From Escherichia coli (GTDB lineage: Bacteria > Pseudomonadota > Gammaproteobacteria > Enterobacterales > Enterobacteriaceae): a stretch of 6,335 bases of DNA. The notes under the pieces were generated by a model. That model made no database searches and was not told where the DNA came from. It saw only the letters and a list, made by a program, of their open reading frames with translations. The first letter of the stretch is position 1, and each line of letters starts with the position of its first letter. The stretch lies in assembly GCF_003334355.1 (NCBI RefSeq), contig NZ_QOWP01000066.1. One strand, written 5' to 3'. Positions 1 to 6,335 of this stretch are shown here, one piece after another. The translations under genes were made by a program, and so were the position numbers.

Positions 1-80
1 ATGCTTCCATCGGAAACGATGATCTGGCAGCCTGAGTTCACAGATAAAACACTCTCCAGGAAACCCGGGGCGGTTCACAA
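1..80. repeat. Left copy of perfect 80-bp terminal inverted repeat
   Basis: Positions 1-80 are the exact reverse complement of 6256-6335 (80/80). Identity breaks at position 81 versus 6255. Contains GTTCACA twice (36-42, 73-79) and the 12-mer TAAAACACTCTC (45-56). Confidence 0.97.
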
Positions 81-1200
81 TTATGCGGTTATATCGCTTA
101 CCTGCGGCCTCAATGAATTTTTGCTGCCCTTTAGTAGCAGACTCATAAAGCTGTTTATCTGAAATGCCTCCCAGACCATCGTTATATGTTCTGACCAGAT
201 TTTCCCGAGCCTGTTGTTGATTCAGCCTGTTCGTACCCGTTCCAAAAAAAGGAATTTTTTCGCCTGTTTTCTGGGCCAGACTCTGCACAGTGTTTTTATC
301 TTTCAGTACGTCACTGGTCATTAACGGTAGGTTTCTTTCCGATGCAAAATCAACAGCGGCTTTCGCTTCCGGTGCCATATCACCGCGAACGGCCCTCGAA
401 ACGGCACTCACTGTATTCTCCAGACCCTTACCAATGCCGCCAATGCCAGCAGAGATTACCGTTTGTAACGGATCAATATCTTCTCCACCAGCGAGGCTGG
501 TGGCTCCCTGTAGTGCTAAATCTGTAGCTGCTGATTTCCCTATGGCCCCCAGCACCGTTCCGGCCCTGCCCGCTGGTGTAAACGCCAGCGCATTAGCCAG
601 AAACGATGCCACGTCTTGCGGTGATAAACCCGGCTTGTTCAGAGCATAATCACCGGATGGTAGGGAAACGATAGTGTTACCCTTCTCATCCTGCCTTAAT
701 TTCGCTCCCATGCTCTGAAGAATCTTTTCCTGAGATGCGTCAGAGCCGAAAAGTTGAGACCATCGAGCTTTTAGAGCATCCATGCTGAGTGAGGTTAACT
801 CTGGGGCAAGGTCGACATTTTGCAGTCTCTCCATCTCTGGAGTCATTCGGCTTTCGCCTGTTATAGCATCGCGCATCGCAGCCCCAAGACTGGCTCCCTG
901 TTCTGCTGAACGTTCAAGCCCCTCTCTTTGCTGAGTCGCTAACTTTGCATACCCTGACGCAAGAGAATTATCAGATGATGTATGTTGAATATTTTGAGTT
1001 GCTGATTGGGCTCGGTCTATTTCATTCGTTGATGGTAGTGGATAGGCAGCATAAAAAGCCTGCTTAGCCTGCTCTACACTTTCTCCGGCTTGCGGGGCAA
1101 CGACTTCGTTGAAGTATTGCTCCTGAGCCTGCGCTTTTTGTTCTGGTGCTAACGCCTGATACTGTGGAGAGGCGATAACATCTTTCCATGCTTTAGCCAT
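1..1200 (-). CDS. Hypothetical protein, third gene of minus-strand operon; 400 codons in window, 3' end beyond window start (partial)
   Basis: ATG at 1200..1198 overlaps the TAA stop of the upstream gene by 1 nt (TAATG), implying translational coupling. SD-like GGGGTG lies 5-6 nt upstream. Hand translation of all 400 codons down to position 1 shows no stop (MAKAWKDVIASPQYQALAPEQKAQAQEQYF ... GKRYNRIIVNRPGFPGECFICELRLPDHRFRWKH). Ala/Gly/Gln/Ser-rich with no catalytic motif recognised. Absent from the ORF track, presumably because it has no in-window stop. Confidence 0.8.
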   Translation of the reverse strand, partial: MAKAWKDVIASPQYQALAPEQKAQAQEQYFNEVVAPQAGESVEQAKQAFYAAYPLPSTNEIDRAQSATQNIQHTSSDNSLASGYAKLATQQREGLERSAEQGASLGAAMRDAITGESRMTPEMERLQNVDLAPELTSLSMDALKARWSQLFGSDASQEKILQSMGAKLRQDEKGNTIVSLPSGDYALNKPGLSPQDVASFLANALAFTPAGRAGTVLGAIGKSAATDLALQGATSLAGGEDIDPLQTVISAGIGGIGKGLENTVSAVSRAVRGDMAPEAKAAVDFASERNLPLMTSDVLKDKNTVQSLAQKTGEKIPFFGTGTNRLNQQQARENLVRTYNDGLGGISDKQLYESATKGQQKFIEAAGKRYNRIIVNRPGFPGECFICELRLPDHRFRWKH

Positions 1201-2666
1201 TAATCACCCCATAGTGAAGAAAAGTTACTGCTGGCTGCTGGCTGTGATACCTGCTCAGATTGCGGCAATGTCTGCGACGAAGAAGAAGTTCCTCTGTCAA
1301 CTGCTGAAATAACCCGCAAAGCATCATAAGCTCGACCAGAAGCAGCTTTCAGCGAATTGAACTGGTTTTCCATCTTCCGGCGCTTGGTATCAATGGTTTT
1401 TGTGGAATCACCAGGCTGAGGGAAATACATTTGATAATATTTTGACATTTCAGCAGGTACGATAGCTGCCCCTGTTTCCTGACGGAGTATTGCCATTATT
1501 GCGTCATTAGCATTAACAACGTATTGCTGCTCTGTTGGGCTGAGCGTTAAGTTAGCCAGCGTCCCATTACCCAAAGCATTATTAATGATCGCCACTCGCT
1601 GTGGGCTAATCTGGCCTTTCAGTGTATCCATTGAATCAAGAGCATCCCTAACTCTGTATGCAAATCCAGCAGCTTTTTTAGCCCCTTCTGGCGACTTTTC
1701 CATGATCTTTTGAGCTGTTGGCAAAGCTATTAGACGAAACCCATCTCCAGATATTGGCTGGTTTAGTTTTCCCTGCTCTTCACTTCCGTCTGTGTAGTAT
1801 TTTGTGACAGTGCCATCATCGTTTTCCCTAACACTCATTAATTTTTTGGCGTTTGTATTAATTCCAGCCGCTGCCGCAAATGCCGCCGCCCCCTCTGGAT
1901 CCGCCTTTAACATTTGAGCGTACTGATTGTAATTCTGCATTGCTGCTGTTGGTGCATATGCTGACGTTAACGCATTTGCTCGGCTAATATCCTGCCCTCT
2001 CGCCTGAAGTGCTTCGCCAGCCTGATTGCTGCGGATTGTCTCTGCCAACTCGCCGCGCTCAATATCCCGACCTTCCATTTGATCTTTGATATCGAAATAC
2101 TTCTCATGACCGAGAGAAAACAGCGCCAGATTACCTGCGAAATGCTGGAAGCCCTGCGGGTCATTAACCTGCATTTCAGCAATAGTTTCTGGAGGGATAC
2201 CTAAACGACGCATCTCCTGCTCATTATCCATCATGAACCTGCCAAATGCGCCCGGACCAAGCGATGAGGCTACCTGTGCTTTGAGCGCCAGATTGCCATA
2301 ATCATCCCTTTGAGCATCATCGACATAACTCATCCCTTTACGGACTTCCTCAAACTCTTCTGGGAATGCTGTAATAAGATTACGCATCTGCTCCCTGTCG
2401 CCGGACGCATAAGCATCTGCATAACCTTTCTGGAATGCCGCTTTACGCTCCTGCTGTTGCTGCTGCTTATAAATATCAGCAACTCCAGCCAGACCACGTA
2501 ACGCGGTCAGACCAACGTTATTTGCACCTGAGCGAGCCAGTTCATTGTTTTCGCGGATCAGACCAAGCGTTGCGTTAATGTCGCTTGCCTTTGGCGCATT
2601 CTCGTTTTGCGTACCGATGCCAGCCAGAAAACCACCAGAATTAATACCCTGTTGCCACGTAGCCAT
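1200..2666 (-). CDS. Hypothetical low-complexity protein (488 aa from ATG), second gene of operon
   Basis: The ORF track gives 1200..2678 (492 aa) starting at a GTG that overlaps the upstream small ORF. I prefer the ATG at 2666..2664 (MATWQQGINSGG...), 4 nt after the TAA of the 57-aa ORF. Stop TAA at 1202..1200. Contains a QQQQQ run and Ala/Gln-rich segments. No Walker, HNH, integrase or nuclease motifs seen by eye. Confidence 0.85.
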   Translation of the reverse strand: MATWQQGINSGGFLAGIGTQNENAPKASDINATLGLIRENNELARSGANNVGLTALRGLAGVADIYKQQQQQERKAAFQKGYADAYASGDREQMRNLITAFPEEFEEVRKGMSYVDDAQRDDYGNLALKAQVASSLGPGAFGRFMMDNEQEMRRLGIPPETIAEMQVNDPQGFQHFAGNLALFSLGHEKYFDIKDQMEGRDIERGELAETIRSNQAGEALQARGQDISRANALTSAYAPTAAMQNYNQYAQMLKADPEGAAAFAAAAGINTNAKKLMSVRENDDGTVTKYYTDGSEEQGKLNQPISGDGFRLIALPTAQKIMEKSPEGAKKAAGFAYRVRDALDSMDTLKGQISPQRVAIINNALGNGTLANLTLSPTEQQYVVNANDAIMAILRQETGAAIVPAEMSKYYQMYFPQPGDSTKTIDTKRRKMENQFNSLKAASGRAYDALRVISAVDRGTSSSSQTLPQSEQVSQPAASSNFSSLWGD

Positions 2667-2670
2667 TGAT

Positions 2671-2844
2671 TTACCCACGTCCAGTTAAAGTGTAAGCCAG
2701 CGCCTTATCCATTAATCCCCGAGCAATTTCGTGGATCGTTGGCGCAACTCCTACCTCTGATTTTTTACGCTGCTCCTCCTGAATTTTCTTTATCGCTTCC
2801 ATTTGCTTCTCACTTATCAATACTGGCTTTACTGAAATAGCCAT
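2671..2844 (-). CDS. Small 57-aa protein, possible ribbon-helix-helix-like DNA-binding regulator (inference)
   Basis: ATG at 2844..2842 preceded by a strong SD (AAGGGGG, 4 nt spacer); stop TAA at 2673..2671. Translation MAISVKPVLISEKQMEAIKKIQEEQRKKSEVGVAPTIHEIARGLMDKALAYTLTGRG has a short N-terminal beta-like segment (KPVLIS) followed by two predicted helices, as in Arc/Mnt/CopG-type folds. Too short for the ORF track. Confidence 0.55.
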   Translation of the reverse strand: MAISVKPVLISEKQMEAIKKIQEEQRKKSEVGVAPTIHEIARGLMDKALAYTLTGRG

Positions 2845-2877
2845 AACGCCCCCTTAGAACTGTATAAAACAACAGTT

Positions 2878-2905
2878 ATTATAGTTTCACAAATCGCAAT
2901 ATTAA
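2878..2905 (-). promoter_or_regulatory. Candidate sigma70 promoter for the three-gene operon
   Basis: On the minus strand a perfect -10 TATAAT (plus-strand 2878-2883), a 16-bp spacer and a -35-like TTAATA (2900-2905, 4/6 match). The predicted start is about 25 nt upstream of the 57-aa ORF ATG. Confidence 0.4.
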
Positions 2906-2918
2906 TCATCGCAATTGC
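2893..2918. promoter_or_regulatory. Operator-like repeats overlapping the -35 region
   Basis: Direct repeat ATCGCAAT at 2893-2900 and 2908-2915 flanking the palindrome ATTAAT, plus the 8-bp perfect palindrome GCAATTGC at 2911-2918. Confidence 0.35.
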
Positions 2919-2939
2919 AAAATATGAAACAAATAGCAC

Positions 2940-2972
2940 AAAAAAATGCCACCGCTCAGTAGCTGGTGGCAT
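2940..2972 (-). terminator. Rho-independent terminator between the primase unit and the downstream operon
   Basis: Minus-strand RNA reads AUGCCACC-A-GCU-ACUG-AGC-GGUGGCAU followed by UUUUUU: an 11-bp GC-rich stem with one bulge and a 4-nt loop, then a 6-U tract. Lies downstream of the primase gene and iterons, and upstream of the operon promoter. Confidence 0.7.
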
Positions 2973-3166
2973 CGTTCTGTATGTCAGGTTTTGACAGGTT
3001 TTTTATGGACTCTAAAAACTATATTTATGGTGTCGCATTACTCTTCACGGCAGGCGCTTTCCAGTTCTGCCCTTGCTTCTGGCTCCATTGGTAATTTGAT
3101 TCGCGATCAGCTATGCGGATGGTTTGCTGAACAGGCATAACAACTTCTCAAAGGCTGTTTTTTGAA

Positions 3167-3183
3167 CTACGAAAATTTCGTAG
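3167..3183. promoter_or_regulatory. Palindrome CTACGAAA-A-TTTCGTAG, putative protein-binding site
   Basis: Perfect 8-bp inverted repeat with a 1-bp centre. Shares the TACGAAA/TTTCGTA half-site with the palindrome at 3222-3242. Confidence 0.35.
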
Positions 3184-3221
3184 TGCTCACTTTCAAAAAC
3201 GTCACGCCCTTGTACACAGGA

Positions 3222-3242
3222 TTTTACGAAAGTCTCGTAAAA
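3222..3242. promoter_or_regulatory. Palindrome TTTTACGA-AAGTC-TCGTAAAA, putative protein-binding site
   Basis: Perfect 8-bp inverted repeat with a 5-bp spacer. Overlaps the 12-mer TAAAACACTCTC (3238-3249), which also occurs in the terminal inverted repeat. Confidence 0.35.
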
Positions 3243-3291
3243 CACTCTCTGATGCCAGCCAGGTGTTGTGCGCATCAATTCAGTCACATTG

Positions 3292-3405
3292 TGTTGGTTC
3301 AAAATACCGTGTTGTTGGTTCAGTGTTGGTTCAATAAAAAGAATAAAATCCTTATAAAACAATACTCTTTACAAATTGAACCAACTGAACCAACTGAACC
3401 AACAC
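3292..3405. repeat. Iteron cluster, putative replication origin or cis-replication region
   Basis: TGTTGGTTCA at 3292-3301, 3313-3322 and 3324-3333 (21- and 11-bp phasing). A 43-bp AT-rich spacer (3334-3376). TGAACCAAC at 3377-3385, 3386-3394 and 3395-3403 in inverted orientation; the 11-mer GTGTTGGTTCA is perfectly inverted at 3395-3405. Starts 24 bp after the primase-helicase stop. Confidence 0.6.
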
Positions 3406-3428
3406 CTTTTCTACGCACATGAAGAAGC

Positions 3429-6185
3429 TCATTCTTCAGATGAGTTGTAATCTCCTGGCTGGTAATTGAGTACATAAACGTTTATTTGTCGTCCCTGAAT
3501 ACGTGGTGATTTTCTTTGGTATCCACGACCGCTGTTTGGTGGGGTTAGCATCCCGGCTTTTTTCAACACTTCAGCAAACTGTTTTGCGTTGAAACCACAT
3601 GCGATCTCCTTTTCAAATGTGGCCGGGAATGTGTAGAAAATCATTGGGCTTTCGTCATGTTCTCCACGCTGACGGTATCCGGCTAAATCTTTGATTGGCA
3701 AATCTGCCGGGCTGTATGGAAATGGTGCAAAACGGCTAAGCCCATAGGCATTAAGAAATGCCTCCGTTTGTTCAATAATCTGCTGATGTTCTTTGTTACC
3801 TGTGCCGAACTCGCGCAACCATGCGTTATAGCTGTGCTGTATCGCATCACGGCATGTCTGAGCATCCCAGCCTGTTACAACCTCGCCTAACAGCAATGCG
3901 GCCTCCAGAATGGCAAATCGCGCGGCTACACGGTGAACCTGCTCACCATAATCGGATGGAATCAGGCTTCTCCATCTGCTTTCGCAGTCACGAACAGTTT
4001 TAATAGCCTGTTGCTGGTGGTCTGCCAGCCATTTAATCCACTCACGCCCGGCTGCGCCGTGGTGATGCTGGTAAGCGTCTTTCAGTGCGTCTGCGTGCTG
4101 TTTTCCGTTCTGGTAATCGTGAAAGAGTACTGCTTTACTCAACGGAATATTCAGCAGTCGCACCAGTTGCCCGGCTTTGGTTTTTCGCCCGGAAGTAGCG
4201 ATAAATGTTTCTAAATCCATTTCTCCAGTGCTGATTGCCACTGTACGCCAGCGTTTTAGATCCCGGTTTCCACCATCTTTAGCGCCTTGCAGTTTCCCTA
4301 CACCGTTAAATAACGCATAGGCAGACTGTGAAACACTGACAGGATCAGCGCCCTGACCAACTTCATCAAGCGGCATTAGTCCGTCATTGTGGGCGGCGGC
4401 TTCATTTGCCAGCCCCAGCGCGGTTCCGTACCACGTCAGCCGCAGTAAATCAGGGTTGCCGTATAAGCTGCTCGCCACGTTTGCCGTGGTGGTCTTACCT
4501 GCGCTCGACTGCTCATAGAAATGAATGCCGAACCCGTCAGCGCCCACCAGCCCAATCAATGGCGCTGCCAGTGCTGCGCCGATCCCGGTCATCATTGAAT
4601 AGTTACCAAAGGCCAGACGCGCCACGTTATCACGCCAGCTTTTCGCGCTCCCTGAGACGGTATATCCGGCTGCGGCTGAGCTTCTCCCGCTGAACAGCAC
4701 AGGATTTTCAGGTGTTCCGATGATTTCCCCATCAGGCATGATGTACGCTCCGCATTGCCAGCCAGTGGCATGAGCAACACGCCACAATTCACGAGAGCCA
4801 CTGCGTTGTAGCCAGTCTGCCAGTATTGCTCTGAGGCTGCTTTTGGTCGTGACATTTACCCCACCAGCTTTAAGTGTGCGCCATCCTTCACGTTCACCAA
4901 TATCAGCCAGTGGAATGGCAGCGGTTGTCGGCGTTTCAGAACCAAACGACAGCCAGCGAAGAATGAGATACTGGTCTTTATCGTCTCTGCCAGTACCGAT
5001 AACGCTTAACGGAGAACATAACCAGCTTTCGTTATTGATGATTTCTCCACTCTGGCTGTCAGCTCTCGGAGATACCCAATAAATACCATCCTCGCGGCTT
5101 TCTATTCTTGGTTTCAGTGGGTCGGTATCCATAACCTTAAAATCGCTTCCCTCAATGGTCTGTGGCTGCTGTTTCACGCCATTACCCTGTGGTTGGTACA
5201 TTGACTTATTGAACGCTTCTGTGGCGCATTTAATGCCGTGTTTTTGGTGGTAATCATTCCAGTCTGCTTTGTGATCTGTCGGGGGTAATGCCACCCATCC
5301 AGAAACAGATAAAGCTGCTTTTTCTGCTGCTATTCTCCCCGTGTTTTGTCTTCCTTCGCTGTGGTCGTTATCCGCAGCAATGATGATTTGTGCTGAAGGA
5401 AATTTATCCCGCAGTACCTGGGCGACATATAACAGGTTCCCGGCATCAATCGCCGCCACTGTCAGCGATTCTGGACGAATTAAATGGGCAGATAATGCCG
5501 TTGCCAGCCCTTCTGCGATTAAGATGCTCTGTGTTGTTTCTGGTGCGTTTATGGCGTGATATGCCCCTCGCTTTGCTGAACCTGTCAGGAGTCTTTTTTC
5601 ACCATGTGAGGTAATAGTCTGTGCTGCTGTGACTGCGCCGGATTTATCCACCAGCGCCAGCAACAGAGATCCATCGGGCAACACTGGGAATGTAAAATCA
5701 CCTACCCCTTTCGCAACCAGATAATCAGATTTGCCGTTTACAGCCTTTCTGCGCATGTCATCAAACTGACGGGAAAACGTATCCCGTCTTTGTTGTTCGT
5801 CCTTCTCTGCCCTTTTCAGGCGCTCCTGTTCGCGTCGCTGGCGCTCGGTTTCCAGTTGTTCCCGTTTCTGGCTGGTGGCTTCTGGTGTTTCCGTTGTCCG
5901 GTAATCAATACCCAGAACATCAGCGGCAAGAAGCGCCGCCTCTGTTGTGTCGCAGTTATTTACGCGTTTAATTAAATCCAGCCCATCACCAGCGCCGCAC
6001 TGATTACAGATGAAGCTACCGCGCCCGTTGTCGTCGAACCGGAATCGATCTTTGCCCCCACATGCAGGGCAGGGAGCATGACGGCGAGGAGAGTCAGGGA
6101 CATTTATGTTCAGACAGCCCAGCACATGAGGCCAGTTGTTTTCAGACGCACTGATAACCTGACGGATAAGATCAATGTTTCGCAT
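3429..6185 (-). CDS. Primase-helicase, P4 alpha-like (zinc ribbon + TOPRIM + P-loop NTPase, 918 aa)
   Basis: ORF track 3429..6185. ATG preceded by SD ACGGGGG with a 5-nt spacer. Zinc-ribbon motif CPACGGKDRFRFDDNGRGSFICNQCG (aa 39-63, nt about 5997-6071). Charged linker ERQRREQERLKRAEKDEQQRRD. TOPRIM signatures IAEGLATA and IIIAADNDHSEG (aa about 220-300). Walker A-like SSAGKTT (aa 560-566, nt 4488-4508) and Walker B-like MPLDEVG. The architecture matches the P4 alpha and DUF927-type primase-helicases of satellites and integrative elements. Confidence 0.92.
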   Translation of the reverse strand: MRNIDLIRQVISASENNWPHVLGCLNINVPDSPRRHAPCPACGGKDRFRFDDNGRGSFICNQCGAGDGLDLIKRVNNCDTTEAALLAADVLGIDYRTTETPEATSQKREQLETERQRREQERLKRAEKDEQQRRDTFSRQFDDMRRKAVNGKSDYLVAKGVGDFTFPVLPDGSLLLALVDKSGAVTAAQTITSHGEKRLLTGSAKRGAYHAINAPETTQSILIAEGLATALSAHLIRPESLTVAAIDAGNLLYVAQVLRDKFPSAQIIIAADNDHSEGRQNTGRIAAEKAALSVSGWVALPPTDHKADWNDYHQKHGIKCATEAFNKSMYQPQGNGVKQQPQTIEGSDFKVMDTDPLKPRIESREDGIYWVSPRADSQSGEIINNESWLCSPLSVIGTGRDDKDQYLILRWLSFGSETPTTAAIPLADIGEREGWRTLKAGGVNVTTKSSLRAILADWLQRSGSRELWRVAHATGWQCGAYIMPDGEIIGTPENPVLFSGRSSAAAGYTVSGSAKSWRDNVARLAFGNYSMMTGIGAALAAPLIGLVGADGFGIHFYEQSSAGKTTTANVASSLYGNPDLLRLTWYGTALGLANEAAAHNDGLMPLDEVGQGADPVSVSQSAYALFNGVGKLQGAKDGGNRDLKRWRTVAISTGEMDLETFIATSGRKTKAGQLVRLLNIPLSKAVLFHDYQNGKQHADALKDAYQHHHGAAGREWIKWLADHQQQAIKTVRDCESRWRSLIPSDYGEQVHRVAARFAILEAALLLGEVVTGWDAQTCRDAIQHSYNAWLREFGTGNKEHQQIIEQTEAFLNAYGLSRFAPFPYSPADLPIKDLAGYRQRGEHDESPMIFYTFPATFEKEIACGFNAKQFAEVLKKAGMLTPPNSGRGYQRKSPRIQGRQINVYVLNYQPGDYNSSEE

Positions 6186-6197
6186 TCTGGCCCCCGT

Positions 6198-6335
6198 TTA
6201 GTGCGTCACTGGTGCTTCTGGGATGCCGTTTTCGTTTAGTTCGGCAATAAAGCTGTTGTGAACCGCCCCGGGTTTCCTGGAGAGTGTTTTATCTGTGAAC
6301 TCAGGCTGCCAGATCATCGTTTCCGATGGAAGCAT
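6198..6335 (-). CDS. Small ORF (45 aa) directly upstream of the primase-helicase; start may lie beyond the window
   Basis: ATG at 6335..6333 and TAA at 6200..6198, ending 12 nt before the primase ATG. Translation MLPSETMIWQPEFTDKTLSRKPGAVHNSFIAELNENGIPEAPVTH. The first 80 nt are the terminal inverted repeat. Operon-like spacing with the primase supports it, but it is short and without recognised motifs. Confidence 0.4.
   Translation of the reverse strand: MLPSETMIWQPEFTDKTLSRKPGAVHNSFIAELNENGIPEAPVTH
6256..6335. repeat. Right copy of perfect 80-bp terminal inverted repeat
   Basis: Exact reverse complement of 1-80. Confidence 0.97.

Follow-up and report, generated by a model that had tools for sequence, protein, structure and literature searches.

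A probable intrinsic terminator insulating a separately controlled ejection-protein unit in a PICI-like satellite island of Escherichia coli

Analysis of a 6,335-nt stretch of Escherichia coli DNA (hereafter the window) revealed, at positions 2940-2972, a hairpin with an adjoining U-run that very probably constitutes a Rho-independent (intrinsic) terminator on the minus strand and insulates a separately controlled unit downstream. Such an element would mark the end of a replication operon and the start of a late unit under its own control that carries ejection-protein genes. The sequence, fold, strand, position and conservation of the element were observed directly, and from these we infer termination itself, its efficiency and control by LexA. 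In the mechanism that we propose, transcripts of the replication operon would start near alpA and cross the primase gene, an iteron origin and a decayed gene remnant, until RNA polymerase passes from 2972 to 2940, where the nascent RNA would fold into an 11-bp hairpin at a U7 tract and be released. Some 35 nt past this point, a second unit comprising a 57-aa ORF and genes resembling P22 gp20 and gp16 would begin at its own promoter, which is overlapped by a LexA-type operator. Because release at the hairpin would be followed by a unit with its own promoter, the terminator would shield this second unit from read-through. Intrinsic terminators are seldom 100% efficient, so some co-transcription of the two units is likely.

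Read along the minus strand from 2972 to 2940, the element is 5'-AUGCCACC-A-GCU-ACUG-AGC-GGUGGCAU-UUUUUU-3', a hairpin (2946-2972) of 8+3 bp in which 7 of the 11 pairs are G-C. The 5' arm (AUGCCACC, 2972-2965) is followed by a bulged A (2964), inner arms of GCU (2963-2961) and AGC (2956-2954) enclose a 4-nt loop (ACUG, 2960-2957), and the 3' arm (GGUGGCAU, 2953-2946) passes immediately into a U7 tract (2940-2946) whose first U pairs as the closing base of the stem. The initial annotation had described an 11-bp GC-rich stem followed by U6, and this description is exact in that the first U of U7 closes the stem and leaves U6. Folding with ViennaRNA gave -24.1 kcal/mol for the 56-nt minus-strand segment (z = -5.84), a value that 0 of 200 shuffles reached, and -16 to -17.3 kcal/mol for the hairpin by itself. 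The site combines several hallmarks of intrinsic terminators, namely a stable G+C-rich stem-loop, an adjacent U-tract, a noncoding location after a co-directional gene and, across lineages, a structure that is kept through compensatory changes while the sequence is not. Canonical E. coli and phage terminators such as trp t, rrnB T1 and lambda tR2 likewise combine a short-looped, G+C-rich hairpin of 8-11 bp with U7 directly after the stem, a few dozen nt past a co-directional stop codon. The present element differs from them in its one-nucleotide bulge, in lying inside a mobile island, and in moving with its downstream promoter as one cassette.

Searches across the window singled out the same site. 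A general terminator scan listed it on the minus strand only, and a stricter scan for a single hairpin with at least six T within the next 7 nt ranked 2940-2972 as by far the best in the window, the runner-up folding at -6.8 kcal/mol. Along the gene strand of the ~19-kb island to which the window belongs, this hairpin is the sole strong intergenic hairpin with a T-run. That a palindrome came to lie beside an A/T run by chance would be in keeping with the lenient terminator-like patterns of the window, which show no enrichment (10 found versus 7.1 expected). Against chance, dinucleotide shuffles of the whole window on both strands yielded a site at or below -16 kcal/mol in only 2 of 200 cases (at or below -14 kcal/mol in 10 of 200), the element is conserved in 45 copies, and elsewhere it is replaced by other hairpins at the same position, so that we regard this explanation as having a negligible probability. 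A permissive E-value Rfam scan of the whole window returned nothing at the hairpin and two chance miRNA-like matches on the iteron palindrome. Two ORFs that begin in the palindrome's ATGCCACC (2829-2972 on the minus strand and 2946-3140 on the plus strand) were taken as spurious.

The primase, iterons, terminator, promoter and operon all lie on the minus strand, which the initial annotation had left unstated, and in minus-strand order the locus comprises the primase, the iteron origin, a gene remnant, the hairpin with U7, the promoter, a LexA-box-like operator, the 57-aa ORF and the ejection-protein genes. The gene for the 918-aa primase-helicase (3429-6185, minus strand; zinc ribbon, TOPRIM and DUF927) is the final one to remain intact in the replication operon upstream. 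It is followed by a replication origin (3291-3405) in which two iteron sets surround an AT-rich spacer, with three direct GTTGGTTCA iterons at 3293, 3314 and 3325 (spanning 3293-3333) and three inverted ones at 3377, 3386 and 3395 (spanning 3377-3403). The coordinates (primase stop at 3429, iterons at 3405-3291, hairpin at 2972-2940, promoter at 2905-2878, operon start at 2844) bear out the claim that the hairpin lies downstream of the primase and iterons and upstream of the operon promoter; the primase is not its immediate upstream neighbour, however, as a decayed gene remnant takes that place. This remnant is a 36-aa ORF (3028-3138, minus strand) that corresponds to the C-terminus of a 152-aa gene, intact in three related islands (L005, L107 and L114), which shares the ORF's stop codon and has a similar C-terminus. 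We rejected the 36-aa ORF as a real small gene, since it is the tail of the 152-aa gene and a TGG>TGA change places a stop codon inside it in 20 of 44 copies. The stop codon of the 152-aa gene or its remnant lies 56 nt ahead of the hairpin, so that the terminator follows the final gene, or what is left of it, in the replication operon by this distance.

Two further features occupy the region ahead of the hairpin. Between the origin and the remnant are two operator-like TACGA-N5-TCGTA palindromes (3242-3222 and 3184-3166, 57 bp apart), which also occur in two relatives of the island (L002 and L004). Just upstream of the hairpin in the minus-strand sense, a tandem 10-bp repeat TGWCAGGTTT (2982-3001) forms part of the conserved cassette; in another relative (L003), whose homology to the window begins here, both repeat copies share one G>A change (TGWCAAGTTT). 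These features bear on the possibility that the hairpin is mainly the 3' end or stabiliser of a short regulatory RNA transcribed from 2973-3290, with no role as a barrier to the primase operon. Such an RNA would account for the conservation of ~60 nt upstream of the hairpin, tandem repeat included, and for operator-like palindromes further upstream in a region whose ORF has decayed. The minus strand from 3430 to 2973 has no promoter-like site, though, zero Rfam families matched, and relatives that keep the hairpin have this region swapped for the 152-aa gene or for unrelated sequence. A regulatory RNA therefore seems to us very unlikely to be the main role of the hairpin, and in that case too the element would count as an intrinsic terminator.

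Downstream of the terminator, the -35 element of a sigma-70-like promoter (TTAATA-16-TATAAT, 2878-2905, minus strand; a 10/12 match and the best in the window) lies 35 nt past the hairpin and U7, and its -10 hexamer is invariant across most related lineages. Abutting this hexamer and covering the expected transcription start is a LexA-box-like operator of the form CTGT-N8-ACAG (2858-2877, AACTGTATAAAACAACAGTT; in minus-strand order, 2877-2858, AACTGTTGTTTTATACAGTT), a pattern with one match in the window versus 0.06 expected. Its heterology index of ~5.0 equals the median of 19 E. coli LexA operators (range 0.3-9.8), all figures, like the weight table built from these operators, being approximate; on the same approximate scale, the corresponding boxes have indices of 3.9 (Serratia), 4.2 (Erwinia) and 8.5 (L016). 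In the relatives from Klebsiella and Raoultella and in L024, the box is an off-spacing CTG-N9-CAG variant, and the lineage L019-23 is without a LexA-like box. We interpret these patterns to mean that SOS (LexA) control of the downstream operon is likely in the present island and, given the off-spacing or absent boxes in some relatives, not universal in the satellite family. The conserved -10 hexamer together with the CTGT-N8-ACAG box accords with a unit under its own control that requires insulation. Further upstream in the promoter region (2884-2934, minus strand), a TTTCAT-N4-TGCAAT-like motif occurs twice (ATCGCAAT at both 2893 and 2908). Its two copies are kept in every lineage (in the equivalents of L006-L025), even where the LexA box is lacking, and are possibly the site of an additional dedicated regulator. 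Among the islands with inspected annotation, most contain a gene of the PerC family.

The initial annotation had placed a three-gene operon behind this promoter, and three genes do follow it, the third being cut by an insertion sequence in the present strain. The first gene is the 57-aa ORF (2671-2844, minus strand; Shine-Dalgarno sequence AAGGGGG at 2855-2849), whose product is conserved in islands of Escherichia, Serratia, Klebsiella, Raoultella and Erwinia with the invariant residues GVAPT.H.IARGL.DKAL. Searches of PHROG, Pfam, PDB sequences and Foldseek with this protein gave zero matches. Its AlphaFold model (pLDDT 74) has an extended N-terminus and two helices, and the protein could be a ribbon-helix-helix DNA binder, a fold that the model fits only loosely. 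Next come a 492-aa P22 gp20-like DNA ejection protein (1200-2678, minus strand), whose gene overlaps the start of the following one, and a P22 gp16-like ejection protein/transglycosylase (79-1200, minus strand), of which the N-terminal 374 codons are left by an IS3-family end; the intact gp16-like protein in L001 has 701 aa.

By analogy, the closest functional parallel to such a unit is operon I of the Staphylococcus aureus pathogenicity islands (SaPIs), reportedly a LexA-controlled packaging operon (Ubeda et al. 2007, cited in PMC6092414). Like the present island, SaPIs reportedly have an origin 3' of the initiator gene in their replication module, followed by a distinct late operon under an SOS-type operator. 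The two differ in that the host here is Gram-negative, the sequences are dissimilar, LexA binding is here a prediction from sequence, and the cargo consists of ejection proteins in place of the capsid-size or terminase genes of SaPIs.

We assessed conservation of the terminator in 45 E. coli-type copies gathered from genomes, IMG/VR and metagenomes with a search pattern placed outside the hairpin and U-run. The U-run was T7 in 43 of the 45 copies and T8 in the remaining 2, never shorter than seven. Stem variants comprised AGC>AAC (10 copies), AUG>ACG (5 copies), GGUGG>GGCGG (3-4 copies), and AGC>AUC, a double change (L127) and GCCACC>GCUACC (L130) in one copy each, and all of them fold at or below -12.6 kcal/mol on the coding strand. 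Of the four stem transitions, three turn a coding-strand pair into A.C while leaving G.U on the opposite strand, and the fourth does the reverse; pairs are kept at 91% on the coding strand versus 97% on the opposite strand, a difference far from significant. Given the split of three transitions to one, the E. coli-type polymorphism by itself shows no selection for coding-strand pairing. The Erwinia type adds one G.U change favouring the minus strand, and we set aside the comparison of G.U with A.C polymorphism as a strand test, its tally of 3 plus and 1 minus (with 1 further minus from Erwinia) being uninformative.

The same polymorphism enters the case for an action of the palindrome on the plus strand or as DNA, as an antisense terminator pointing toward the origin or as a single-stranded DNA hairpin in replication. 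The plus strand folds well (-17.8 kcal/mol, z = -3.6), three of the four E. coli-type stem transitions keep G.U on that strand only, the origin is ~320 nt away, and at 2982-3011 the plus strand contains another hairpin, weak and with T6 after it. However, the plus-strand palindrome is followed by CGUUCUGU in place of a U-run, neither a plus-strand gene nor a promoter-like site lies upstream of it, and the skew among transitions is not significant, with L130 and the Erwinia island L011 showing the opposite, G.U on the coding strand. The other lineages also speak against a role as DNA, for their hairpins lie 1-3.7 kb from the primase and origin, yet are always equally far from the small ORF and retain a coding-strand T-run. 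We accordingly judge a plus-strand or DNA role highly improbable and retain the minus-strand terminator as our reading.

Distant relatives, which were reached through homologs of the 57-aa protein and the contigs that encode them, provide comparative evidence for this terminator. In five lineages whose upstream gene is co-directional, the coding strand has a hairpin and T-run with differing stem sequences, 120-140 nt ahead of the ATG of the small ORF and 13-56 nt behind the stop codon of the upstream gene. These are the E. coli type (AUGCCACC..GGUGGCAU with T7, -17.3 kcal/mol), L016-18 (AAAGCCACC-AGCCC-GGUGGCUUU within a T6 run, -13.5 kcal/mol), Erwinia persicina L011/12 (AGCCCGU-AUAA-GCGGGCU with T7, -11.4 kcal/mol), L024/25 (GCCCGC-UAUA-GCGGGC with T6, -11.2 kcal/mol) and L132 (CCUCGC-UCCG-GCGAGG with T6). 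The Erwinia L011/12, L024/25 and L132 elements have homologous flanks, and in this Erwinia-type trio all six stem pairs are 100% paired, two of the six having changed on both sides and one being a coding-strand G.U; between the window and L016, one stem pair is switched from U-A to A-U. A fixed position, a coding-strand T-run and stems that change while remaining paired are what an RNA terminator predicts, and neither a protein site recognised by sequence nor an element of the origin would predict this fixed-position pattern. The claim of two transcription units with independent regulation is supported in silico, first by a hairpin and U-run that five lineages keep with differing stems and then by a LexA-box-like operator whose conservation extends to Serratia, Erwinia and one more lineage.

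The distant relatives also speak to whether the inverted repeat, instead of acting as RNA, is an operator bound by a protein that regulates the adjacent promoter, as its near-perfect symmetry, its location 35 nt upstream of the -35 and its travelling with the promoter as one cassette when flanks recombine might suggest. The stems are wholly different between lineages (GCCACC, GCCCGC, CCUCGC) while the T-run, the TTTCAT..TGCAAT motifs and the -10 hexamer stay, which is the signature of an RNA structure and not of a sequence-specific site, and lineages with a divergent upstream neighbour keep the promoter motifs and lack the hairpin. An operator role for the palindrome has, in our estimate, only a very slight probability, and the intrinsic terminator remains the preferred interpretation.

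Not all relatives have a comparable element. Where the upstream neighbour is divergent (Klebsiella L009/10, Raoultella L013 and L014, and L128/129), a hairpin with a T-run is absent; among co-directional arrangements, Serratia L006-8 have only a degenerate hairpin before T5, and in L019-23 the hairpin that follows a PerC gene lacks a U-run. The feature is thus not obligatory, since these last two groups lack a canonical terminator. The tie between hairpin presence and the orientation of the upstream gene is suggestive, with few independent lineages behind it.

In L003, homology to the window runs from ~30 nt before the hairpin through the 57-aa ORF, and the rest differs, with another P4-family primase and, as cargo, an M41 peptidase-like gene; L004 has a DUF5906 primase upstream and a full P22 gp14/gp7/gp20/gp16-like set downstream. 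These swaps indicate that hairpin, promoter, operator and small ORF form one module that has been joined to varied replication genes and cargo. A distant-mode comparison of the cassette (2845-3010) with 50,697 phage records gave zero matches, so that it was apparently not borrowed from a sequenced phage. Scanning species-representative genomes with the promoter/operator pattern TGAAACTATAATNACTGT gave 59 matches, among which only L077 (Escherichia sp.) was inspected and found relevant, and 51 unopened matches were judged by their record titles to be chance occurrences in unrelated, mostly AT-rich genomes.

The cargo behind the 57-aa ORF is a genome-delivery module that varies by lineage (window 79-2678; L004, L005, L009, L011, L016, L022, L024, L130), its versions being P22 gp14/gp7/gp20/gp16-like sets, gp20 and gp16 only, T7_gp14-like with an SLT transglycosylase, TMP_3 tape-measure proteins, and SLT with a Dit-like protein. 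It would seem that these satellites encode DNA-ejection proteins of their own; a literature search on satellites carrying ejection or tape-measure genes found nothing relevant.

Taken by itself, the terminator is ordinary and routine, one more well-supported case in an unannotated intergenic region, and more interesting than it are the probable SOS operator, the architecture of the cassette and the genome-delivery genes behind it. We tentatively raise the idea, which we hold to be a possibility with the balance of probability against it, that the terminator is the upstream edge of a portable, self-insulated cassette driving lineage-specific genome-delivery genes, composed of terminator, regulated promoter, SOS-type operator and small conserved ORF and residing in enterobacterial PICI-like satellites. 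Were this so, the satellites would bring their own DNA-ejection machinery, matched to the type of helper, and the terminator would silence membrane-active proteins while the replication operon is on. The arrangement provides a testable model for the timing of cargo expression in a widespread satellite family, as well as clear module boundaries for engineering and annotating these islands.

The locus described in the initial annotation is only part of a larger satellite island. Positions 78-6262 of the window are 100% identical to part of the chromosome of E. coli ECamp52, and at least 80% of the window occurs in 264 of 5,426 complete E. coli genomes; for the segment 2800-3440, at least 80% occurs in ~330 of the 5,426 (~6%) and some part in 611. 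Both edges of the window (1-77 and 6263-6335) are IS3-family (IS1203-like) ends with the same terminal sequence in inverted orientation, which makes the window a piece bounded by IS copies; it may be a segment bracketed by two such copies in the manner of a composite element, or the contig may merely end in repeats. An intact copy (L001) is a ~19-kb island adjoining tRNA-Thr and proA, in which a tyrosine integrase, a 67-aa AlpA (Pfam Phage_AlpA PF05930, E = 8.5e-20), AntA/AntB, DUF4222, Ash and several small genes are followed by the TOPRIM/DUF927 primase, the 57-aa ORF, a 'phage DNA ejection protein', the 701-aa gp16-like protein and, later, a PerC-family regulator. Apart from a few distal ones, the island genes lie on one strand, the minus strand of the window.

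The definition of Gram-negative PICIs includes unidirectional transcription and an origin directly 3' of the primase with two iteron sets around an AT-rich stretch (PMC6092414). The present island has an integrase at tRNA-Thr with an adjacent AlpA, and a primase followed by an origin with two iteron sets, and by its gene content and layout we classify it as a putative PICI-like phage satellite. It resembles described Gram-negative PICIs such as EcCICFT073 (PMC6092414, PMC6739421) in its tRNA-site integrase, AlpA, primase-replicase, unidirectional gene order and origin, whose two iteron sets lie on either side of an AT-rich stretch, and differs in its cargo, which consists of P22-type ejection proteins in place of Rpp or capsid-morphogenesis genes. 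Neither an internal terminator nor a LexA box is mentioned for the Gram-negative PICIs in PMC6092414 and PMC6739421, and a literature search on PICIs with LexA or a terminator found nothing relevant. Satellite phage P4 likewise has a P4-alpha-type primase and integrates at a tRNA gene, and relatives of the present island have Ash and Icd-like genes, whereas psu, delta and sid are not among the annotated genes of the island. Immunity of P4 relies on RNA-controlled premature termination, and in contrast nothing suggests that the hairpin described here is regulated in that way.

Two observations on related islands may be added. The 12,152-bp circular record NZ_CP148430 (L002), entered as a non-mobilizable plasmid, resembles a related island in excised form; it contains integrase, PerC, the 57-aa ORF, primase and AntA/B and keeps the hairpin/promoter cassette, and the ejection-protein genes are absent. 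This circular copy is consistent with excision and is the one observation that favours induction and packaging by a helper phage. In Klebsiella and Raoultella islands (L009, L010 and L013, ~2350-4330), a gene pair on the opposite strand, encoding an AAA_15/AAA_21 ATPase and a protein of ~190-200 aa, sits between the replication genes and the cassette, with TATAGGCAGAA..TTCTGCCTAT palindromes repeated alongside, and this pair looks like an anti-phage defence insertion.
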